A model generated the notes under the pieces. It worked only from the letters and a program-made list of their open reading frames with translations. It was not told the origin of the DNA and ran no database searches. Of a DNA stretch of 64,000 nucleotides, positions 18,185 through 52,343 are shown piece by piece (positions within the stretch are counted from its first letter, which is position 1; every line of letters starts with the position of its first letter). Origin of the DNA: Patescibacteria group bacterium (GTDB lineage Bacteria > Patescibacteriota > Patescibacteriia > 2-01-FULL-39-33); contig JBAZMW010000001.1 of assembly GCA_041649575.1 (NCBI GenBank), positions 154,711-218,710 of the forward strand, read 5' to 3'. The position numbers and the translations under genes were made by a program.

Positions 18185-19156
18185 ATGGACACTTTAAATA
18201 AATTAAAGGCGGTGGTTTCTGGTTCCATAAAGGAGCGGGAAATTTTGGCGCCTTATACCACTTTCAATATTGGCGGCGCGGCCAGCTATTTTTATTTGGT
18301 TAATAATTCGGACGAGATGATTAAATTGGTGGCAGTGGCCGAAAAGAAAAAATTATCTTATCTTATTCTGGGCGGCGGCAGTAATCTGTTGATCAGCGAC
18401 CAGGGCTTTCAGGGTTTGGTCATAAAAAATAATTGCGCCAAAATCAGAATAAAGAATGATTTAGTGGAAGCGGAAGCCGGGGTCTTGCTTTCCAAGCTGC
18501 TGGGTGAAACGATGGCTGGCGCCTTGCTGGGACTCGAGTGGGCGACGGGGATTCCGGGCACGGTGGGCGGCGCTGTTTGTAATAACGCCGGCGCCTATGG
18601 CGGGCAGATGAGCGACAATATTATTGGCGTTAAAATCATAAGAAACGGCAAAATAAAAGAATTGACAAACAAAAAATGCCAATTCGCTTATCGAGAAAGT
18701 ATTTTTAAAAAGCAAGAAAAGCGTGATGTCATTTTGTCGGTAGTCTTGAAGTTGAAAAAGGGGAGCGCTGTCCAGCTAATGAAGGCCAGAGAAAACATCA
18801 AACTAATAAACAAAAAGCGGGGCAAAAAATTCAGTAGCGCTTCAGCCGGCAGTGTTTTTAAGAATATTTTTTTGGCCGAAAAGGAAATAATCGATTTTAA
18901 AAATAAATTTTCGCAACTGCCGGAAGAGTTTATGGAAAGTAGAAAAATACCAGCTGCCTGGCTGATCGATCAGTGCGGTTTGAAAGGCAGGGCTATTGGC
19001 GGCGCTAAAGTTTCAGAGGAGCATGCCGGTATAATTATAAATACCGGAACAGCTACCGCGGAAAACGTCATTATGTTAATTAGTGTCATCAAACAAAAAG
19101 TGAGAAGCAAGTTTAATTTGCAGTTGATGGAAGAGGTGGAGTACGTGGGTTTTTAG
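18185..19156 (+). CDS. murB: UDP-N-acetylenolpyruvoylglucosamine reductase MurB
   Basis: FAD-binding N-terminus (TTFNIGGAA), GGGSNLL, C-terminal MurB domain. Confidence 0.85.
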   Translation: MDTLNKLKAVVSGSIKEREILAPYTTFNIGGAASYFYLVNNSDEMIKLVAVAEKKKLSYLILGGGSNLLISDQGFQGLVIKNNCAKIRIKNDLVEAEAGVLLSKLLGETMAGALLGLEWATGIPGTVGGAVCNNAGAYGGQMSDNIIGVKIIRNGKIKELTNKKCQFAYRESIFKKQEKRDVILSVVLKLKKGSAVQLMKARENIKLINKKRGKKFSSASAGSVFKNIFLAEKEIIDFKNKFSQLPEEFMESRKIPAAWLIDQCGLKGRAIGGAKVSEEHAGIIINTGTATAENVIMLISVIKQKVRSKFNLQLMEEVEYVGF

Positions 19157-19262
19157 TTGTCATCGCGAGGGAGCGTAAGCGACCGTCCGCCTAGGTTTAG
19201 CGAGATAGGTGGCAATCTCGCGGGATTGCTTCGCTAAGCTCGCAATGACAATTAGTAATTAA
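19157..19262. repeat. Large imperfect inverted repeat built from two copies of a ~40-nt unit (TTGTCATYGCGAGG.AGC..AAGCGAC...) plus an inner hairpin GCGAGATaggtggcaATCTCGC
   Basis: Left arm 19157-19193 is the reverse complement of right arm 19215-19259 with few mismatches. A third, single-arm copy lies inside cysS (41887..41929). Confidence 0.6.
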
Positions 19263-19271
19263 CCAAAAAAC

Positions 19272-19577
19272 ATGCAAATCAACATCAAAGCGACCAAGGC
19301 GCAGCTCACGCCCCAGGCCCATGATATTATCAATGAAAAAATCGAGAGCCTGGCTAAATACTGCGACTGTATTATCAAAGCGGACGTAGAAGTGGGATTG
19401 ACCAGCCTGCATCACAACAAAGGCGATATTTATCGGGCAGAGGTAAATTTGGAGGTGCCGGGAAAAGTTTTGCGCGCCGAAGCCGAGACCGAAAATATAA
19501 CCAAATCAATGAACGAGGTGAGAGATAAATTAAAAATGGAATTAGTGAAGTACAAGGAAAAAATCAGAGAAAAATAA
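19272..19577 (+). CDS. hpf: Ribosome hibernation promoting factor / RaiA family
   Basis: MQINIKATKAQLTPQAHDIINEKIESLAKY..., a typical HPF/YfiA N-terminus; about 100 aa. Confidence 0.8.
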   Translation: MQINIKATKAQLTPQAHDIINEKIESLAKYCDCIIKADVEVGLTSLHHNKGDIYRAEVNLEVPGKVLRAEAETENITKSMNEVRDKLKMELVKYKEKIREK

Positions 19578-29432: not shown

Positions 29433-29439
29433 GTTATTA

Positions 29440-29583
29440 ACAATCAAATTTTCCACAGACAATGGGCGCCCAAAAGGCTTAATTTACCGCCAAAGCGGTA
29501 GACCTATCGAGGAAATAAGGCTAGAGAGCCATTTTTCGAGTCTGTGGAAAACCACGGATTTTTATTTTATAATCATAATTTTT
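29440..29583 (+). ncRNA. Ribosomal protein L10 leader-like cis-regulatory 5' UTR
   Basis: About 145-nt structured leader directly upstream of rplJ with a long-range stem CCACAGAC...GTCTGTGG. Its position matches the known L10(L12)4 autoregulatory leader. Confidence 0.5.
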
Positions 29584-30141: not shown

Positions 30142-30570
30142 ATGTCAGAAGAAAAACCTGTCTCGCCGAGCCAAGGCGGAGAAGTGATTGTTCCGGAAAG
30201 GTTCAAAACACTGGTAGAGCAAATCGAAAAACTAAGCGTTTTGGATTTATCGGAATTAGTTAAGGTGTTGGAAGAAAAATTTGGCGTGTCCGCCGCCGCT
30301 CCGGTAGCCATGATGGCTGCTGGCGCCGCCGCCGCTCCGGCCGAAGCTGTCGAAGAAAAGAGCAGTTTTGATATCGAGTTAACCGCCGCCGGAGAAAACA
30401 AGATTGCCGTCATCAAGGCGGTGCGGGTGGTCACCGAACTGGGCCTGAAAGAAGCCAAAGATTTGGTGGACGGAGCTCCTAAGATGGTTAAGGAAGGCGT
30501 CAAAAAAGAGGATGCCGAAAAGATCAAGAAAGAATTGGAAGCGGCCGGCGCCACCGTCACCCTAAAATAA
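30142..30570 (+). CDS. rplL: 50S ribosomal protein L7/L12
   Basis: Ala-rich hinge plus C-terminal [56 protein letters not shown]. Confidence 0.95.
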
Positions 30571-30592: not shown

Positions 30593-30629
30593 AAAGATCT
30601 CGGGGTGTTTTTGGTTTTTAGAAATTAAT
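30593..30629. terminator. Rho-independent terminator (AACACCCCGAaagatcTCGGGGTGTT + TTTTGGTTTTT), bidirectional
   Basis: Perfect stem and T-tract; overlaps the stop of the convergent minus-strand gene. Confidence 0.75.
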
Positions 30630-33023
30630 GTCGATTTGGTAAATTTTATTATCTGCCAGCAGGTAGATTTTTTTATCTTTTTCGGCCACCGACATGGCTT
30701 TTATTTCAGAAAAGTTTTTGGAAATGAATTGGGTCTTCAGGTTGCCTTTTTTGTCTACGACAACGATTCTTTTATTGGTTCGATTTAGCAGGTAAAGATA
30801 GTTAGAATCGGCTTCGGTTTGGATTTGGGCGATATCACTGAAGGCTGGGTCGAGCTTGATACTGAAAGATTCTTTTATTTTGCCGGCAGCCAAATAATTT
30901 ATTTCCCCATTGTTTTTGGCGGTAAAAACACCGCCGTCGATAGCCAAGGCGGTGGCCTCCTTAACGCTGGTACCGTCTTTAATCCAGGGACTACCGGAGT
31001 TGTAGACGTCATTACTGGGGTAGTGTTTGAAAATTTGATTTTTGGCGGTTTTGAGCGTATAGAGCTTGTCGCCATAAACAGCAAAATCTCTAATAGCAGT
31101 GTCGGCGGTGAGAACTTTCTCGGTGGTACCGCCGGAAAAATTGTGGCGGAAAAATTCCCGGTCGCCATTTAAAATTAAAACGCTATTATTTAAGGCGACG
31201 ATCTTGGCCACTTGAGTTAAGGGGTTGTTGAGCTGGATAGGGATGGTTTGCGATTTATCCAAATCTATTTTATAGAGTTTTTGATTCTGGTTGTCGAAGG
31301 TAAACAGCAGACCGCCACTCTTTGCTAAACCGACCGTCTGGGAATCAGGGTTCTGATTTTTTAGATCGGCGACTACTTTAGGATTTTCCAAGTAAGAGAC
31401 TTTTTGCAAAAGCTGATTCAGATCGGAGACTTTTTTGCCTAAATCGTCGCGGGTTTTTTTGTATTTGCGGGTCAAGGGAATTTTTCCCAACAGCTCGCTG
31501 GCCTGGCTCAGGGAATTCTTGGCTCCCGCTTCGTCATTGAAAATATTTTGCGCTTCGGCGGAGTTGATGCTCTCCTCGATTTGTTTGGTCAGCTCATCAA
31601 TATTTACTTGGGAGTTGGCCGTTGCCTCCCGTCCTTGCCAGACCAGACTTTGGCAAAACAAAAAAACCAAAACAAAGAGAGCGATTATTAGTATTTGCTT
31701 GGGTCGGCGAAGGTTGATAAATTTGGCGATTTGCCGGTTTAGCCAGTCGCTAATAGCCAAGAGCGGCCTGGGTCTTTTTTGAAAAGTTATTATTTTTTTG
31801 TAATTATCCAGGTTGATCTGATCGGCGATTCTTTTTATTACCGCGGCCGGCCGGATAATCTTTGGCTCTCTTGTTTCGGCCAACTCGTTTGAGGCCAACG
31901 ATTCATCGGCCATTCTTTTTTTAGCAACCTCGATTCTTGGCGGCTCGGCGGCGCTGGACAAGGCCTGCTCCGGAGCGGTTTCGTCAGCGAAAGAAAAATC
32001 TTCTGGAGTCGGCTTGACCTGGGGCCGGCGGGCAACAATTTTTTGTTTGAAACCAGAGAAAACGGCAGAAACTGCCAGGCCAATTTTTGCCAAACCAATT
32101 TTTAGATAACCAAATAATTTTTTTGTCGCTTTACCCAGAGCGGAAAAAATTATAATCAGCGCCTTCTTCCAATTAGGCAACAGGGAAGGGGTAAGATACT
32201 TTTCGGTTTTTTCCTGGGTGTCGAGTAGCCGGTTGATGGAGTGTTGGGGGTGGGCATTGGGTCCACTAAGAGCTCTGTCTGCTACCAGTCGTTGGCTTGT
32301 TTCTTTGGTGGCGGCTTCTTCCTCGGGGCCTGGCGATTGGATAATAACGGCATAAAAATTACCCTTGGCTCCTTGCATTTTCAGCACTTTTTCTATTTCA
32401 CTGATAGTGGCCATGGAAGTGTTTTCAGCGGCAATCTCCATTAAGTTGCTTTGCGACAAATATTCTAGAATAGCGTTGTTACAAATCAGCAGGTCGTCTT
32501 TGGAAGTAATAGAGCCGCTGATAATATTGGAGAACATCTTTTCCGGATTGTGCTTGGATTTTTTTTCTCCCGCTTGGCTAAAAATGTCAATGATTAAATG
32601 TTCGTAGCGTTTTTTGTAATGGAAGAGAAAGGCGTTGTTTTTGCCGATCTGGCTAAGATAGATTTTGTTTTTGTGGATCAGGCCGATTAAGGAATTAATG
32701 CCGCCCAGATCGATTTCGGCAATGGATTCCTGGATCATCCTGTAAAGCCGGCGGTTGGCTCGTTGCAGGCATTCCTCGAATCTTTTTTCCAGGCCGTATT
32801 CTATCTCGAAAGGCGGCAAATAATATTCTGTCTGTAAATCAGAAATAATTTCGGAAAATTTTTCCGTCACCTCGTCGGGTAGGCCGGAAAGTTCTATAAT
32901 ACCGAAAATCACGCCTAGTTTGTTTTTAAGCTCTTTATCGGTATCGGCGATGAAAGCGTCGCCCAGCACGTCCGGATCGGTCTCCCAGGCCAGCCGGCCA
33001 ATTTTTATTGGAAAGTTAGTCAT
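30618..33023 (-). CDS. Large hypothetical membrane protein (801 aa) with a cytoplasmic N-terminal domain, TM segments and a C-terminal beta-rich (propeller-like) domain
   Basis: Long ORF with hydrophobic segments (ALIIIFSALGKA..., ILIIALFVLVFLFCQ); no confident motif. Confidence 0.45.
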   Translation of the reverse strand: MTNFPIKIGRLAWETDPDVLGDAFIADTDKELKNKLGVIFGIIELSGLPDEVTEKFSEIISDLQTEYYLPPFEIEYGLEKRFEECLQRANRRLYRMIQESIAEIDLGGINSLIGLIHKNKIYLSQIGKNNAFLFHYKKRYEHLIIDIFSQAGEKKSKHNPEKMFSNIISGSITSKDDLLICNNAILEYLSQSNLMEIAAENTSMATISEIEKVLKMQGAKGNFYAVIIQSPGPEEEAATKETSQRLVADRALSGPNAHPQHSINRLLDTQEKTEKYLTPSLLPNWKKALIIIFSALGKATKKLFGYLKIGLAKIGLAVSAVFSGFKQKIVARRPQVKPTPEDFSFADETAPEQALSSAAEPPRIEVAKKRMADESLASNELAETREPKIIRPAAVIKRIADQINLDNYKKIITFQKRPRPLLAISDWLNRQIAKFINLRRPKQILIIALFVLVFLFCQSLVWQGREATANSQVNIDELTKQIEESINSAEAQNIFNDEAGAKNSLSQASELLGKIPLTRKYKKTRDDLGKKVSDLNQLLQKVSYLENPKVVADLKNQNPDSQTVGLAKSGGLLFTFDNQNQKLYKIDLDKSQTIPIQLNNPLTQVAKIVALNNSVLILNGDREFFRHNFSGGTTEKVLTADTAIRDFAVYGDKLYTLKTAKNQIFKHYPSNDVYNSGSPWIKDGTSVKEATALAIDGGVFTAKNNGEINYLAAGKIKESFSIKLDPAFSDIAQIQTEADSNYLYLLNRTNKRIVVVDKKGNLKTQFISKNFSEIKAMSVAEKDKKIYLLADNKIYQIDINF

Positions 33024-40837: not shown

Positions 40838-42265
40838 ATGCCAAAAATTTATAACACCTTAACTCGCAAAAAAGAAGAATTTGAACCACTTAAAGACAAA
40901 GTGGTTACTTTTTATCAATGCGGTCCGACGGTTTATTGGACACAGCATATCGGCAATATGCGAGCCATGGTTTTGGCGGATTTGATTAGGCGTTCGCTGG
41001 AATATTTGGGTTATAAAGTGAAGTTTGCCAGAAATTATACCGATGTCGGCCACTTGACCAGCGATGAAGACGAAGGCGAGGATAAAATGGCCAAGGCCGC
41101 TAGTAGGGAAAAATTAACGCCGGAAGAAATCGCGGATAAATATATTGGAATTTTTGAACAGGACGTGAAGGCCCTGAATTGCGAGGAGCCAACTTATGAG
41201 CCACAAGCCACCAAGTATATAAAAGAGATGCAAAAAATGGTGCAAACCTTGATTGACAGGGGCTATGCTTATGCCACTGATTTGGCGATTTATTTTGATG
41301 TTAATTATTATATTGAAAAAGGCGGGGATTATACTGGTCTGTCCGGCCAGGATTTAGAAAAAAATATTACTAATGCCGGCAAGGGCGAAGTAAGTGACAA
41401 GCAAAAAAAGAAGCCGCAGGATTTTGCAATCTGGTTTTTTAAAGTCGGTGAACACCAAAATGCTTTGCAGACTTGGGACAGCGAGTTCAAATTGCCTGAC
41501 GGGCAAAGCATAAAAAAAGAAGGTTTTCCGGGCTGGCATTTGGAATGTTCGGCGATGAACAAGGCGCTATTTGGCGATACGATTGATATTCACATGGGCG
41601 GCATTGAACATGTTCCGGTGCATCACACCAATGAGATTGCCCAGAGCGAGGCGGCCAACGGCAAGAGGTTTGTAAATTATTGGCTGCATAATGAGCATTT
41701 GACGATTGACGGTGGAAAGATGTCTAAATCTGAAGGCACAGCCTATTCTTTGGCAGATATTAGAGCCAAGGGACTTGACTCGCTGGTTTTGAGATACTTC
41801 TTTTTGCAGGCGCATTATCGCAGCAAACAAAATTTTACTTGGAAGGCATTGGAGTCGGCCAGTGTGGCTTTGAATAATTTAAAGAATGTCATTGCGAGGA
41901 GCAAAGCGACGAAGCAATCCCGTGGCAATATAAGCGAAGAGTTTAAACAAAAATTTACTGCCGTTTTGGGTGATGATTTCAATATTCCGCAGGCCTTATC
42001 TATTGTTTGGGAAATATTAAAATCGAATTTGCATGATGAGGACAAGGTGGCGACTATTTTGGATTTTGATAAAGTTTTGGGCTTAGGACTTGATAAAATT
42101 AAGGCAGAAGAGATTCCGCAGGCGGTAATTGATTTGGCCGAGGAGAGACTGAAAGTCAGGCAGGACAAGGATTTTAAAAAATCTGATGAGTTGAGAGAGA
42201 AGATGAAAGAGACGGGTTGGGAGATAGAGGATGAGAAGGAAGGATATAAATTAAAGAAGTTATAA
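40838..42265 (+). CDS. cysS: Cysteine--tRNA ligase
   Basis: HIGN (TQHIGNMRA) and KMSKS motifs, CysRS Zn ligands; 475 aa. Confidence 0.9.
   Translation: MPKIYNTLTRKKEEFEPLKDKVVTFYQCGPTVYWTQHIGNMRAMVLADLIRRSLEYLGYKVKFARNYTDVGHLTSDEDEGEDKMAKAASREKLTPEEIADKYIGIFEQDVKALNCEEPTYEPQATKYIKEMQKMVQTLIDRGYAYATDLAIYFDVNYYIEKGGDYTGLSGQDLEKNITNAGKGEVSDKQKKKPQDFAIWFFKVGEHQNALQTWDSEFKLPDGQSIKKEGFPGWHLECSAMNKALFGDTIDIHMGGIEHVPVHHTNEIAQSEAANGKRFVNYWLHNEHLTIDGGKMSKSEGTAYSLADIRAKGLDSLVLRYFFLQAHYRSKQNFTWKALESASVALNNLKNVIARSKATKQSRGNISEEFKQKFTAVLGDDFNIPQALSIVWEILKSNLHDEDKVATILDFDKVLGLGLDKIKAEEIPQAVIDLAEERLKVRQDKDFKKSDELREKMKETGWEIEDEKEGYKLKKL
41887..41929 (+). repeat. In-frame copy of the 19157-family palindromic repeat unit inside cysS (GTCATTGCGAGGAGCAAAGCGACGAAGCAATCCCGTGGCAATA)
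   Basis: Shares GTCATTGCGAG and AGCGAAGCAATCCCG blocks, in the same order, with 19157..19262. Confidence 0.5.
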
Positions 42266-42348: not shown

Positions 42349-42717
42349 TCACTCTACTTGAGCATTGATTTCTGCTGTAATGCCGGAGTACAACTTGTGG
42401 CGTTCCGGCCCCACGATAAATGAGAGAGCGACAAACCCCAGTACAGTTTTATTATGTTTGTATCGAATGTTCCGGCAAAGCCTTTTCATGATGCCATGTA
42501 AGTACACTGGGTGAGAGCGAATCAAGGCACGGCGAGTGCGTGGGTCCTGCCATTCTTTCAACACCTCCCATGCTTTTTGTTCGTCGTATTTTTGACTTTC
42601 TTGTAATGCCTGGCGTAATTCGTCCGCATAGTCGCGGCGAAAGTTGTCGATCTCTGCGATCGACAAGACTATTGGCACCCCATCATCCATTTCCCCGTTT
42701 CCACTTTCCGTTCCCAT
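42349..42717 (-). CDS. GC-rich island gene 1, 122-aa hypothetical protein
   Basis: SD AGGAGGGatcgtcATG; about 57% GC; no recognisable motif. Confidence 0.55.
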   Translation of the reverse strand: MGTESGNGEMDDGVPIVLSIAEIDNFRRDYADELRQALQESQKYDEQKAWEVLKEWQDPRTRRALIRSHPVYLHGIMKRLCRNIRYKHNKTVLGFVALSFIVGPERHKLYSGITAEINAQVE

Positions 42718-42781
42718 GACGATCCCTCCTGTTGTAGGTACTGTTTTTAGTCTATCAGATGGTTTTAAAATAGTAAAATTT

Positions 42782-42829
42782 ATATTTAGACAAATTTAAT
42801 ACCGGAGGGTCGCTTGCGCAACCTCCCGG
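42782..42829. repeat. Direct repeat copy 2, immediately 3' of the minus-strand 475-aa gene
   Basis: See copy 1. Preceded on the gene side by a second small hairpin ATCGCCgtcaGGCGAT. Confidence 0.7.
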
Positions 42830-42858
42830 TATGTTGATGTACGATCGCCTGACGGCGA

Positions 42859-44286
42859 TTAGTTGAGAGCGACTGCCTCCTGCCTGCCCTCGGTGCTCAG
42901 GACCACATGGTCCTCCTCGAGCCTTAGCACGGCGATGGCGGCGCTGCCCGCGCTCTCATAGGCGTGGTTCTCGTAGATCAGCCGCGGCTCCTGGCCCGGC
43001 ACCATGACATAGAGCTCATAGCGTAGTTGCGGGTCGGCGATGCGGTGATCGATCTGCTCCTCGGCCACGAAGACCGCCAGGCCCAGTCGCGCGCTTATGA
43101 TCCTGTGCCGTACCGACGGCGTGCGGTAGGACACTTGGCCGGGAGTCCCCATCGGCATCTGTATGACTACGCCGTACTTCTGATCCCCGTAGTCTTGGTA
43201 CATCTTTGGCTTCAGGCGCCAAGATGCCATCTTTTGCGCCAGGATCTGGGCGATCGCCGCGTCCACCTCGCCCTCAAAGGCGGCCTGCTCGGTCTCGTTG
43301 AGCTTGGGCGGACTCGGAGTCGCTTCAGTCGGCTCGAAGACAAACTCGGCGATGCGGTTGCCGTACTCCTCGTTGACGAGTTCGACGGTGATTTTCACCT
43401 GGCCGCCCCTTTCGTCAATTTGGATTTGCCCCAGGTCGTTGATGCACAAATCGTGCCGGTCGGCGCTACTGCTGTAGCGGTTGCGCCACTGCCATTCTTG
43501 CATCTGGTCTCGGCCGTGGTGGTAGATCACCACTTGATCGAAGTAGCCGATGCCGCCACTGCCACCCCACTCGCTTCGGGCTACCAGAAACACGGCCGTG
43601 TCGGGATCGAGCACCCTGACCTTCCCGATACTGCACCGCTCCATCTTCATCAACTCCTCAATGAACAACCGGAGCCGTGCCGACACTTCTTGCCCGCCGA
43701 GTACCTCGGCCAATGCCTCCTCATGACTCAACCGCGAGTCATCCTCCAGCAATGCTTTGACGCTGGCGGCGGCTTCGGCCAGCTCTTCCCGCTTCTGCTG
43801 GATTTGGCTGGCAAACTCTTCGCCACCGAGAAGAGCCAGCGCTTGGTGTGCGTCGGAGTAGGATTGCCGCCCGATCTCGTAAGTTTCCCGCGGGAAGTTG
43901 TCGGGGGGGAGCTCTTGTACCAAACTCCTGATGCCCAACTCATCGGTCAGGGCCAGGAACTTTTCCGTGAGCTTTCTTTCACAGCAACCACAACCATTCA
44001 TGGTCGGGTCGATTGCACTGAAGGCCTCGGCGATCGCCAGCCGGACCAGGGGATCGGGCTGGGCATTGATGGCCTTGACGATCCGCCCCCGTTCCTCGGC
44101 CGGCAATTCGCGGAGGCGTTGCACATACTTCCCGCCGCGCTGGCCATCGGCCATGGTCACAGGGATGCCGGTGACCTGCTGGGCAACTTGTAGGCAGACA
44201 GACAATTCCAACTGCCGCAGTTGTCGGCCAATCTCTTCCTCCACTTTCCGCGCTTCTTTCAGCGCTCTTTCTCTTTCCTTGTTCAT
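42859..44286 (-). CDS. GC-rich island gene 2, 475-aa hypothetical protein (no recognisable domain)
   Basis: SD GGAGGAGacaacaATG at 44286. The track's longer 509-aa version overlaps the upstream gene. Coiled-coil-like N-terminus (MNKERERALKEARKVEEEIGRQLRQL), a CGCC cluster, C-terminal beta-rich half. The antisense 388-aa ORF is Arg/Gly-rich and rejected. Confidence 0.6.
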   Translation of the reverse strand: MNKERERALKEARKVEEEIGRQLRQLELSVCLQVAQQVTGIPVTMADGQRGGKYVQRLRELPAEERGRIVKAINAQPDPLVRLAIAEAFSAIDPTMNGCGCCERKLTEKFLALTDELGIRSLVQELPPDNFPRETYEIGRQSYSDAHQALALLGGEEFASQIQQKREELAEAAASVKALLEDDSRLSHEEALAEVLGGQEVSARLRLFIEELMKMERCSIGKVRVLDPDTAVFLVARSEWGGSGGIGYFDQVVIYHHGRDQMQEWQWRNRYSSSADRHDLCINDLGQIQIDERGGQVKITVELVNEEYGNRIAEFVFEPTEATPSPPKLNETEQAAFEGEVDAAIAQILAQKMASWRLKPKMYQDYGDQKYGVVIQMPMGTPGQVSYRTPSVRHRIISARLGLAVFVAEEQIDHRIADPQLRYELYVMVPGQEPRLIYENHAYESAGSAAIAVLRLEEDHVVLSTEGRQEAVALN

Positions 44287-44308
44287 TGTTGTCTCCTCCG
44301 TTCGTCGC

Positions 44309-44606
44309 CTAGTGCGCGAACGCGTTGAGAAACTTTGCCAGCTCCCTCGGCTCTTTCTTGGAATGCCGAAGGAATCTGACGCACGCACCCACTAACTCTG
44401 CTCCGAAATTCTCTTCCCGGCAGGCGATAGCGTACCACCTGGCTGCCAGCGCCTTTTTGCGTTTGCCGGTCCTGGCTAGGACCAGATTATACGCCTTGGA
44501 AGGACTGGTAGCAGACTCGGTGAGGTTGAGCAGTTCGGGTACGGCCCAAACCGCCTTGGCGCGTGCCAATAACTCGATCAGACGCTTGACGTCTTTTGGT
44601 GTCATG
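44309..44606 (-). CDS. GC-rich island gene 3, 98-aa basic helical protein (possible small regulator/partner)
   Basis: SD AGGAAAGGAGcaagccATG; 20-bp gap to gene 2; a probable operon with it. Confidence 0.5.
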
Positions 44607-44773
44607 GCTTGCTCCTTTCCTCTGTAAGGTGCTATCAAGCTGATTGCCAGCTTAACTAATAATTATATCATATTATAACATAATTGTCAATGGTATTTTG
44701 TTATTTTATTTAAATTTAGCCAAAAATAATAAGTATTTTTGCCAAAAGTAGCAATTTGAATTAAAATATAGTT

Positions 44774-45853
44774 ATGAATTTTTGGAAAAAAATAAAAAAG
44801 CCCTGCCTATCCGGCAGGCAGGCGATTTTGGCTCTAGCCCCAATGGCTGGGGTTTCTGATTCGGCTTTTCGACAGGTCTGCAGAGAGTATGGCGCCGATG
44901 TAGTCTATACCGAAATGGTATCGGCCGACGGCCTTTTTTATGATTCCAAAAAAACTTTGGAATTTTTAAAATTCAATAAAAAAGAACATCCGGTGGTAAT
45001 TCAGCTGTTTGGCAAACAGTCTGAAAGATTCACTAAGGCCGCGCAAATTTGCGAGCAAGCCGGCTTTGACGGTATTGATATTAATTTTGGTTGTCCGGCC
45101 AAAAAAGTTGCTGGCCATGGCGGCGGAGTGACGCTGATGCGCGATTTGCCAAAGTGTCGAGAAATCATTGAGGCGGTTTTGGCTGGCACCAAGTTGCCGG
45201 TATCGGTGAAGTTGAGATCTAGTATTAATGTCAGGGGTTTGCCATGGCAAACCCCTGCATGCGGCAACCTGGTGACAGCTTTGGATTTTATAAAATTTAT
45301 GAAAGATTTGCCGCTCTCGGCAGTGATGATTCATGGCCGGCCATACGAAAACCCTTTCAATGCCGAAATAGATTATGAGATGATTAAGAAATGCGTTGAA
45401 TTTATAAAAAATAATTATTATTTAATGACACGGGATTGCCACCTGTCTCGCCGAGCCAAGGCGGACGCTCCGCTCGCAATGACAGCGCCAATAGTTTTGG
45501 GTAATGGCGGTATTAAGACACCAGAAGATGCAAAAAGAATGTTGGAACAAACCGGCGCCGATGGTGTTGGGCTGGCTCGCGGGCTTTATGGCCGGCCGTG
45601 GCTGTTTCGGCAAATTAAAGACTATTTAAAGAAAGGAAAATACAGTAATCTAAAACTAGAAGAGATAAAAAAAATTATTTTAGAGCATGCTAAATTGGCT
45701 TTTGAAAACAAGGATAAACACGGCATAGTGGAATTAAGGAAGCATTTGGCTTGGTATATTACTGGCCAGCCTGGCGCCAGAGAGTTAAGGGCTAAGTTGG
45801 TACGGGTGGAAGATGTAAAAGAAATAAAAGCGATTTTAAAGTATTTAAAATAA
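44774..45853 (+). CDS. dusB: tRNA-dihydrouridine synthase (Dus family)
   Basis: LAPMAGVSDSAFR...VDINFGCP...catalytic Cys region; FMN-binding TIM barrel. Confidence 0.8.
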   Translation: MNFWKKIKKPCLSGRQAILALAPMAGVSDSAFRQVCREYGADVVYTEMVSADGLFYDSKKTLEFLKFNKKEHPVVIQLFGKQSERFTKAAQICEQAGFDGIDINFGCPAKKVAGHGGGVTLMRDLPKCREIIEAVLAGTKLPVSVKLRSSINVRGLPWQTPACGNLVTALDFIKFMKDLPLSAVMIHGRPYENPFNAEIDYEMIKKCVEFIKNNYYLMTRDCHLSRRAKADAPLAMTAPIVLGNGGIKTPEDAKRMLEQTGADGVGLARGLYGRPWLFRQIKDYLKKGKYSNLKLEEIKKIILEHAKLAFENKDKHGIVELRKHLAWYITGQPGARELRAKLVRVEDVKEIKAILKYLK

Positions 45854-52269: not shown

Positions 52270-52343
52270 TGCGGGATCGTCTAATGGTAGGACACGCCCC
52301 TCTGGAGGGCGGTATCATGGTTCGAGTCCATGTCCCGCAGCCA
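52270..52343 (+). tRNA. tRNA-Gln (anticodon CTG)
   Basis: I folded it by hand: acceptor TGCGGGA/TCCCGCA, anticodon stem CGCCC/GGGCG with loop CTCTGGA, T-arm CATGG-TTCGAGT-CCATG, CCA encoded. Confidence 0.8.

Follow-up and report, generated by a model that had tools for sequence, protein, structure and literature searches.

Repeat Units at the murB-hpf Locus and Elsewhere in the Window

The DNA analysed here, 64,000 nucleotides of contig JBAZMW010000001.1 from a Patescibacteria group bacterium (hereafter the window), carries a short palindromic repeat in the spacer between murB and hpf and within the coding sequences of cysS and dus (Table 1). This repeat is probably an unnamed family, or a variant, within the CGTC/TGTC-tagged superfamily of repetitive extragenic palindromic (REP) sequences, non-autonomous and of REP type. 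The murB-hpf spacer is 115 nt long, and nearly all of it is occupied by two inverted units. The left unit begins 1 nt past the murB stop codon (19154-19156), has one mismatch in its basal stem (ATCGC/GCAAT) and contains a nested module of ~25 nt, while the right unit reads, on the minus strand, TGTC-ATTGC-GAG-CTTAGCGAA-GCAAT-CCCG. The two are joined tail to tail with zero spacer and their TGTC tags point outward, an arrangement that Di Nocera et al. term an HH dimer (19158-19250).

The repeat is real and lies far beyond chance. The motif GTCATYGCGAG occurs at exactly four sites in the window (19159 and 41888 on the plus strand, 19239 and 45473 on the minus strand), against an expected count of ~0.06 by our own arithmetic for an exact 11-mer with one Y on both strands. 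When one mismatch is allowed there are five matches, compared with a shuffle mean of 1.24, and only 1 of 100 shuffles reached five. All four units share the architecture TGTC-ATTGC-GAG-(variable hairpin)-CGNN-GCAAT-CYCG. What excludes chance is a covariance model built from 23 units, all of them from unrelated phage and bacterial contigs, because this foreign-unit model picks up the copy in cysS (40.6 bits, E=5.5e-9), the right-hand intergenic unit (33.1 bits, E=6.6e-7) and the dus unit (E=0.034), with no further match in the window.

The original prediction was of a family of short palindromic repeats, one copy of which lies in frame in cysS, and the evidence bears it out. It had also described the spacer as two inverted copies of ~40 nt that form a ~100-nt hairpin; the inversion and the hairpin hold, but the units are of unequal size, 63 and 30 nt. 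The search for further copies that it proposed yielded the fourth unit, in dus, and copies in other genomes by the hundred. The dus unit, a lone inner module at rplL and a second hairpin in dus are additions to that account.

The spacer hairpin of ~100 nt has an RNA minimum free energy of -45.8 kcal/mol (z = -4.8), which none of 200 shuffles equalled. Single window units fold weakly when taken alone (DNA fold z ~0, no better than shuffles), and therefore no stable stand-alone hairpin is claimed for the cysS copy. The palindromic character is visible in the dimer and in the covariation found across the family.

Table 1. Positions of the repeat units, inner modules and flanking genes in the window.
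Feature	Position	Strand	Details
murB	18185-19156		Pfam MurB_C, FAD_binding_4
Long-form unit, murB-hpf spacer (left)	19158-19220, 63 nt	+	Tag TGTC 19158-19161; ATCGC/GCAAT; tail CTCG
Nested inner module in left intergenic unit	19187-19211	+	Diverged copy CCGCCTAGGTTTAGCGAGATAGGTG
Short-form unit, murB-hpf spacer (right)	19221-19250, 30 nt	-	TGTCATTGCGAG CTTAGCGAA GCAATCCCG
hpf	19272-19577		Ribosomal_S30AE
Lone inner module, 5' end of rplL (open reading frame 30142-30570)	30155-30180	+	ACCTGTCTCGCCGAGCCAAGGCGG; 25/25 same as dus copy
REP unit in cysS (open reading frame 40838-42265)	41887-41922	+	In frame, residues 351-362, VIARSKATKQSR
TGTC-tagged perfect hairpin in dus	45229-45259	+	TGTC AGGGGTTTG CCATGG CAAACCCCT GCA; z=-5.1
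Long-form REP unit in dus (open reading frame 44774-45853)	45431-45484	-	In frame, sense peptide RDCHLSRRAKADAPLAMT
Nested inner module in dus unit	45440-45464	-	CCGCCTTGGCTCGGCGAGACAGGTG

Unit Structure and Covariation

Each unit consists of an unpaired (T/C)GTC tag, a 5-bp ATTGC/GCAAT basal stem, a GAG/CGNN internal loop, an apical hairpin and a C-rich tail. The apical hairpin is free in both sequence and length, and it can host smaller TGTC-tagged modules. Its shortest form is a mini-hairpin of the GCGNAGC type; the foreign units tabulated have interiors of 9, 15, 19, 20 and up to 33 nt, and the long forms of the window reach 42-52 nt. In a gap-free alignment of the 23 distinct units, 87.7% of cells are paired versus 70.6% in shuffles, and none of 500 shuffles was as high. 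Changes on both sides of a pair occur at all six apical pairs and at three basal pairs; here basal complementarity (at most one mismatch) was a selection criterion, and the apical stem was unselected. Basal-stem variants come with matching partners (ATTAC/GTAAT, ATCGC/GCGAT, ATTCT/AGAAT, and also ATCCT). At the start of the stem, columns 5-36 are A-U in 23 of 23 sequences and columns 6-35 are U-A in 22 of 23.

In other genomes, 72% of the units have T before GTC and 21% have C (T or C in 459 of 493, 93%). The tail after GCAAT is CTC or CCC in most units, a figure partly biased by the search pattern, and CCA in alphaproteobacterial plasmid copies.

The Copy in CysS

The cysS copy had been predicted as a 14-codon segment at 41887-41929. 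It is indeed in frame, but the element itself ends at 41922 and the two extra residues (G, N) are ancestral. The CysS segment in question follows the conserved ALNNL helix and is hypervariable among 120 orthologues, with a modal length (by our own segment definition) of 15-16 residues versus 18 in the window protein; the element supplies 12 codons where the modal orthologue has ~9. Alignment with orthologues, which had been suggested as a test for an insertion, gives a divided answer: element-free orthologues have a different, shorter loop, but a clean recent insertion is not seen.

The peptide V(I/V)ARS.ATKQS.G is common to the orthologues P0002 (80% identity), P0004 (71%) and P0029, the last with extra interior. 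The Buchananbacteria copy in L274 has kept the motif in its DNA. In L273, the closest relative, the motif has decayed by synonymous changes with the peptide retained, and selection there is therefore on the protein and not on nucleic-acid structure. The CysS proteins of L275 and L279 have the same termini with different interiors, and in L276 the left terminus lies in another frame, overlapping the ancestral ILSL codons. As judged from these comparisons, the cysS copy is old, with turnover of its interior; it is common to relatives and is now evolving as coding sequence. In the AlphaFold model of CysS (mean pLDDT 86.1), residues 351-357 are predicted to extend helix 335-357 and residues 358-366 to form a loop to the next helix, with a pLDDT of 76 for the 10-residue element block versus 94 and 90 in the neighbouring blocks.

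In four further orthologues, from other lineages (P0007, P0020, P0005 and P0035), the loop after ALNNL contains peptides typical of other hairpin repeats (ETGHAPSLQ; ETHCYASKMSTETHVNASLQ). It seems that palindromic families of several unrelated kinds can land, or are tolerated, in this CysS loop.

Downstream of cysS lies a GC island of ~2.3 kb (42600-44640; 55-63% GC versus ~40-45% around it), with minus-strand open reading frames (ORFs) at 42349-42717, 42859-44388 and 44309-44638, none of which has a Pfam match. The island parts cysS from dus, two genes that adjoin directly in the Buchananbacteria relative L274, and it looks like a foreign insertion.

The Copies in Dus

The gene dus codes for a tRNA-dihydrouridine synthase. 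Its unit is 54 nt long (18 codons) and is bracketed by a 7-nt direct repeat, AATGACA, at 45424-45430 and 45478-45484, of which one copy is counted in the 54 nt. The 18-codon insert is absent in the syntenic relatives L274 and L275 and in all 119 other orthologues, and the solved DusB structure has a gap where the inserted peptide aligns. Like the murB-hpf dimer, the dus copy is probably of younger date and lineage-specific.

A second hairpin in dus is TGTC-tagged as well, with a 9-bp stem and another type of sequence. It is also in frame, encodes VRGLPWQTPA and sits in the second Dus loop, after residue 152. This loop has extra segments of at least 7 residues in ~35 of 120 Patescibacteria orthologues, many of them with REP-type peptide signatures. 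Checked in DNA, the Dus genes of L282 and L283 contain in-frame HH dimers of the ATTGC family, and that of L275 contains an in-frame CGTC-1-like dimer with a nested insert. The interior of the long form in L282 Dus recurs in the CysS copies of L275 and L276, and therefore the same variant entered different genes in different genomes. At the Dus codons ATT AAT GTC the TGTC is constant, but the hairpin body after it varies from genome to genome.

The Inner Module and rplL

The module nested in the dus unit, and in diverged form in the left intergenic unit, is ACCTGTCTCGCCGAGCCAAGGCGG, which consists of TGTC plus a hairpin with a 5-bp stem and is 24 nt long, exactly 8 codons. It also stands alone at the 5' end of rplL. 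The rplL product has an extension of ~20 residues, and homology to solved L7/L12 begins at residue 23-24. The module either encodes PVSPSQGG, if translation starts at ATG 30142, or is part of the 5' untranslated region (5'-UTR), if it starts at GTG 30184 after GGAG; the latter start would put the module in the rplJ-rplL spacer.

The inner module was found at 32 loci in the metagenome collection and at none in the viral collection, and it is therefore far more restricted than the outer unit. Its flanks are unrelated between loci, and within long open frames it is read in three different phases; judged by sequence, several of the proteins resemble RNase H, phosphoglycerate kinase and RsmH.

Other short repeats were also seen. 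In the Buchananbacteria relative L286, a gene with a 23S_rRNA_IVP domain is inserted between murB and hpf (2470-2895) and is flanked by runs of TTCATAAAG-like 9-10-mers; similar repeats, GTTCATAAAGT, flank the 24-nt module in the metagenome loci L243, L250 and L254.

In the same part of the window, the leader of ribosomal protein L10 (Rfam RF00557, 54 bits) is present upstream of rplJ at 29435-29574, as expected, and an ORF of 801 residues on the minus strand (30618-33023) has only a sub-threshold DUF6923 repeat match. There are tRNAs at 52270, 59842 and 59984.

Distribution and Genomic Placement

The wider distribution was surveyed with the pattern GTCATTGCGAG-N(6-36)-GCAATCYCG in IMG/VR and in a set of one genome per species, and each of these collections gave at least 120 loci. 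Among the matches listed are Chloroflexota, Patescibacteria, alpha-, beta-, gamma- and delta-Proteobacteria, Nitrospirota, Bacteroidota, Armatimonadota, Firmicutes, Zixibacteria, Atribacterota and others, and these matches include the cultured isolates Mucilaginibacter gossypii, Bradyrhizobium sp. and Litorivivens lipolytica. The matched loci, 1.86 Mb in all, hold 745 left termini, and GCAATC lies at most 70 nt away in 614 of them.

A BLAST search with a consensus-like 36-nt unit, which has 34 of 36 bases in common with the cysS copy, found a 32/32 identical match in the Methylosinus trichosporium OB3b plasmid pOB3b1 and a 91% match in Novosphingobium aromaticivorans pNL2. Both plasmid copies are intergenic HH dimers with the canonical CGTC tag and a CCA tail. 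Intergenic copies on plasmids were also matched in Methylocystis, Novosphingobium, several Nostocales, Halomonas and Legionella. By CysS, Dus and MurB, the nearest relatives of the window's host are annotated as Buchananbacteria or Falkowbacteria.

Two local arrays were seen in this survey. The IMG/VR phage contigs L048 and L110 hold 10-12 units per 12-15 kb, several of their apparent ORFs look as if made up of units, and the 12 units of L048 are all oriented with the genes. In an Anaerolineae metagenome-assembled genome, L198 (1826-2030), a tandem run of six identical 26-nt units GTCATTGCGAGCGAAGCGAAGCAATC repeats every 34-37 nt, with spacers of 8-11 nt.

Units are mostly intergenic: only 14 of 170 genome units lie inside long ORFs, versus 98 of 170 random positions, and units between convergent genes are modestly enriched. 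Relative to co-directional flanking genes, the units at genome loci show no orientation bias (39 versus 30). Adjacent pairs at these loci are HH, with tags outward, in 39 cases, TT, with tags inward, in 3 and HT, in tandem, in 8. A start codon within 30 nt downstream is weakly commoner than at random positions (42 versus 29 of 160). A 5'-UTR element placed just upstream of ribosome-binding sites, to which a purine-rich flank had pointed, was considered as a candidate and rejected, as a long ORF starts within 60 nt downstream of 53 of 160 units versus 49 of 160 random positions; the purine-rich flank signal arises partly because inverted units adjoin. The murB-hpf dimer has neither promoter hexamers nor a terminator-like T-run. 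A search of the whole window gave no Rfam family at gathering threshold for the repeat, and only noise at E up to 10 in 19050-19350.

Relation to Known Repeat Families

Two superfamilies of REPs have been distinguished by their tags, GTAG and CGTC (Di Nocera, De Gregorio, Rocco 2013, BMC Genomics 14:522; PMC3733652). According to the text of that paper, CGTC REPs have the tag CGTC (variants TGTC and CCTC), the first two stem pairs A-T and T-A and a 3-nt tail that is mostly CCA; HH dimers prevail, copies are intragenic in several species, and a dedicated transposase is lacking. The window family shares the tag, the A-T/T-A stem start and the HH dimers, and it is likewise mostly intergenic, with occasional in-frame units; a search with one IS200-like query found no transposase beside units. 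Its tail is C-rich, CTC or CCC in most copies and CCA in those of Methylosinus and Novosphingobium. Its spread goes far beyond the five phyla reported, and includes Patescibacteria and phage contigs. Families 1-4 are described as having a contiguous 8-9-bp stem and a 4-5-nt loop (PMC3733652), whereas the stem of the window family is interrupted by the GAG/CGNN loop, its interior varies from 9 to >45 nt and it contains nested modules. The contiguous stem and short loop being absent, the window family is therefore not filed under CGTC-1 to CGTC-4; this separation follows the text descriptions of the four families, and the window family may stand in that scheme under another label. As the authors note, families with bulged structures may have been missed by their screen (PMC3733652). 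The loci of the window family also contain canonical CGTC-1-like units, with ATTCCCGC stems and CCA tails.

Rickettsia palindromic elements (RPEs; Ogata et al.) are the comparison that had been drawn originally, together with the remark that in-frame insertion is rarely described outside a few such lineages. The comparison stands at the level of the superfamily, as RPE-6 of R. conorii is CGTC-1 and RPE-4 is CGTC-4 in this scheme, but the rarity does not: the same text reports intragenic REPs in several species (PMC3733652), and in-frame inserts are common among Patescibacteria Dus orthologues. Like RPE-4 and RPE-6, the window units are small palindromes that lie in frame in housekeeping proteins without destroying the protein and that encode peptides in several frames. 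The bodies differ, with VIPAKAGI and DSRFRGND encoded by RPE-6 and VIARS..KQS and ..LAMT by the window family. In full, the window units encode VIARSKATKQSR and RDCH...PLAMT, which lack identity to the RPE consensus. The published intragenic peptides include VIPAKAGI and DSRFRGND, and among those given in Additional file 3 of the paper none matches the window family, with no ARND or VIAS (PMC3733652). The host is a free-standing Patescibacteria lineage and not Rickettsia, and the interior of the window unit is modular and variable. The window family and RPE-4/RPE-6 belong to the same superfamily and are different families.

Similarities to the GTAG-tagged REP, BIME and REPIN sequences of E. 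coli and Pseudomonas include units of 20-40 nt, an unpaired tag of four nucleotides at the base of the hairpin, inverted doublets that fold to a larger hairpin, intergenic 3'-proximal sites and a proposed movement as single-stranded DNA (ssDNA). In contrast, the window tag is YGTC, no REP-associated tyrosine transposase (RAYT) was found with the IS200-like query and the sequence is common to many phyla, whereas REPIN-RAYT systems are vertically inherited and lineage-specific. The window family is frequently coding in Patescibacteria. The window itself contains no GTAG-tagged hairpins.

Nesting invites comparison with the cyanobacterial SDRs, modules of 21-27 nt that Elhai et al., in Genome Res in 2008, are said to have found nested in larger hairpin repeats. 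The 24-nt module is similarly nested in two REP units and also stands alone, but it has its own TGTC tag and recurs in frame in proteins. The MITEs (miniature transposable elements with inverted repeats) of Coxiella burnetii are reportedly small repeats that add peptide segments, longer, of terminal-inverted-repeat (TIR) type and lineage-restricted. The palindromic elements of Methanocaldococcus are likewise small repeats that contribute peptide segments, and are longer, TIR-type and lineage-restricted. To our knowledge, no tag-plus-hairpin unit has been described for either. Compared with MITEs in general (70-300 bp, TIRs of 15-30 bp, target duplication), the 93-nt dimer has 16-nt imperfect inverted ends and no visible duplication at murB-hpf, the dus unit has the 7-nt direct repeat identical to its own tag end, and single units of 26-36 nt are far under MITE size. 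Likenesses to K-turns, hammerheads, attC sites and CRISPR repeats were also considered and rejected by inspection, the defining nucleotides or spacing being absent.

A 2025 survey of REPs (PMC12306157) mentions neither Patescibacteria nor the window motif, and a literature search for the exact strings GTCATTGCGAG, CTCGCAATGAC, LRFARND and RFRGND returned nothing beyond unrelated primers.

Mobility and Possible Mechanism

Orthologous sites differ in the presence and absence of units. The murC-murB-hpf-secA synteny is kept in relatives, and their murB-hpf spacers are 33-46 nt long, AT-rich and free of REPs, versus 115 nt in the window. Related phage contigs hold filled and empty versions of the same site; in one instance a unit exactly fills the gap from a stop codon to the next start codon, and in another a unit has been added next to an existing one, making a dimer.

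These observations suggest that units would spread within and between genomes, phage genomes included, with their usual site between genes and often as tags-outward pairs. In a gene-dense Patescibacteria genome some copies would have landed in coding DNA, where they may have survived only if the frame was kept, no stop codons were introduced and the surface loop was permissive. The cysS copy would be an old insertion that is now part of the protein. Movement could proceed through an ssDNA hairpin recognised at its tag by a trans-acting enzyme of HUH/Y1 type, and the favoured role for the tag would be that of a cleavage or joining site, by analogy with RAYT cleavage at GTAG. Because no transposase is associated with the units, this is a mechanism that we infer. 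The lack of a transposase beside units agrees with the orphan status of CGTC REPs, for which no mobilising enzyme is known according to the published text (PMC3733652). A different role for the tag, with TGTC as a pre-existing target in the manner of TTAC for IS608, was considered and rejected, as most empty sites are without TGTC.

Several observations weigh against this account of a mobile REP-type family. Comparison with the empty murB-hpf spacers of relatives reveals no target-site duplication, nor is there a regular pattern overall, and the 7-nt direct repeat at dus equals the element's own tag end. Junctions have microhomology with the tag (TGTGAT in an empty site), with the tail (CTCA) or none; in the phage pairs it is TGTSAT or CTCA. 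In a phmmer search with an IS200-like TnpA query, a single locus of 279 had a match, 6 kb from a unit, and the same query gave no Y1 transposase match in the ORFs of the window, the 64 kb of the source genome covered here; the query was a single IS200 sequence, with which divergent RAYTs could be missed. Clustering of neighbour genes at 240 loci gave no enrichment of transposases, integrases or cas genes, the largest clusters looking like phage structural proteins common to related contigs. Moreover, the cysS copy exceeds the modal loop by only ~3 codons and so is no simple insertion; for REPs, as a rule confined to one lineage, near-identical sequence over many phyla is unusual; the strong covariation is also compatible with a functional RNA or ssDNA structure; and the units lack the stem of 8-9 bp and the loop of 4-5 nt given for the four described CGTC families.

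Alternative Explanations

The units might instead be a functional structured RNA or ssDNA element (for 3'-end protection, as an RNase site or as a protein-binding hairpin) that became repeated by recruitment and not by selfish spread. The compensatory changes seen in either stem, conservation of the GAG/CGNN loop and near-identity across phyla and phage contigs all fit such an element, as do the phage contigs with a unit between almost every gene (L048 with its gene-oriented units among them), the unit that fills a stop-to-start gap and the position of the window dimer just after the murB stop. We nevertheless consider it unlikely. There is no Rfam family, no T-run or promoter consensus at the dimer, and downstream start codons are only weakly commoner; orientation at genome loci is unbiased, coding copies occur in both orientations (cysS sense, dus antisense), orthologous sites differ in presence and absence, and the synonymous decay in L273 reveals no constraint on nucleotide structure there. 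The last four points argue against a strand-specific RNA function as the basis of the family. In E. coli, a REP hairpin near a stop codon can stabilise the upstream message or disturb translation termination. By analogy, the murB-hpf dimer may at most secondarily act as an RNA hairpin that modulates the stability or translation of the murB/hpf transcript.

The main rival to the ssDNA-hairpin mechanism is spread without an enzyme, by template switching, microhomology copying or gene conversion between copies through tag and tail. It would account for the absence of any associated transposase, here and among CGTC REPs at large, for the microhomology junctions and the sites that were already tag-like (TGTGAT, AATGACA, CTCA), for the different hairpin bodies after the same TGTC at one Dus codon and for the cysS site, where termini are kept, interiors differ and one copy lies in another frame. 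However, new insertions at sites unlike the element (the first phage pair, murB-hpf) and near-identical units in unrelated phyla and phages are left unexplained by it, and the conserved unpaired tag parallels the RAYT cleavage site GTAG, so that we hold it to be quite improbable. Sites of attC type or solitary CRISPR-like repeats are a far more remote reading. Hairpin units of 26-40 nt with conserved ends and a variable apex are reminiscent of attC, and the six-unit tandem of L198 is counted in its favour, but RYYYAAC/GTTRRRY boxes are absent by inspection, integrases and cas genes are not enriched around the 240 loci, the tandem spacers are far too short for CRISPR and units lie inside essential genes. 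Finally, a chance match in cysS, or a native CysS segment that resembles the repeat, might be suspected from the hypervariable loop and the small net gain in codons; we count it as already refuted by the 36-nt match to the foreign-unit model and by the orthologues, most of which are unrelated there, with other element variants, one in a different frame, in relatives.

A broader proposal is that the TGTC hairpin modules, including ACCTGTCTCGCCGAGCCAAGGCGG, are one modular, nestable mobile system present across most bacterial phyla and their phages and a major, recurrent source of new surface-loop segments in essential proteins of Patescibacteria, driven by a putative enzyme or by a transposase-independent ssDNA mechanism. 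The segments found at the same loops, in roughly one Dus orthologue in three and in CysS orthologues in many cases, are cited for it, and it is offered tentatively, as rather unlikely. The preferred reading, a non-autonomous REP-type family, is narrower: the finding is correct and richer than originally predicted, but of a known kind, a modular variant of the CGTC/TGTC-tagged REPs.

Significance

As far as the published text goes, CGTC-tagged REPs are an orphan class of repeats with no known mobilising enzyme or function (PMC3733652). That a unit of 26-40 nt is nearly unchanged in distant phyla and in phage contigs speaks for its having been carried horizontally, and it provides a large comparative set for finding the enzyme. 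There is also a practical side, as the units yield spurious ORFs and odd peptide motifs in metagenome annotation and can mislead the alignment of conserved proteins.

The points of interest are the phylogenetic breadth of a near-invariant unit, the nesting of the 8-codon module and the frequency of such elements in Patescibacteria protein loops. Time and again in Patescibacteria, such elements have turned into coding sequence at the same permissive loops, in CysS, in Dus and possibly in L7/L12, and, by way of the module, in what look like RNase H, phosphoglycerate kinase and others. The picture of selfish DNA in protein genes, known from Rickettsia, is thereby extended to another reduced-genome lineage.

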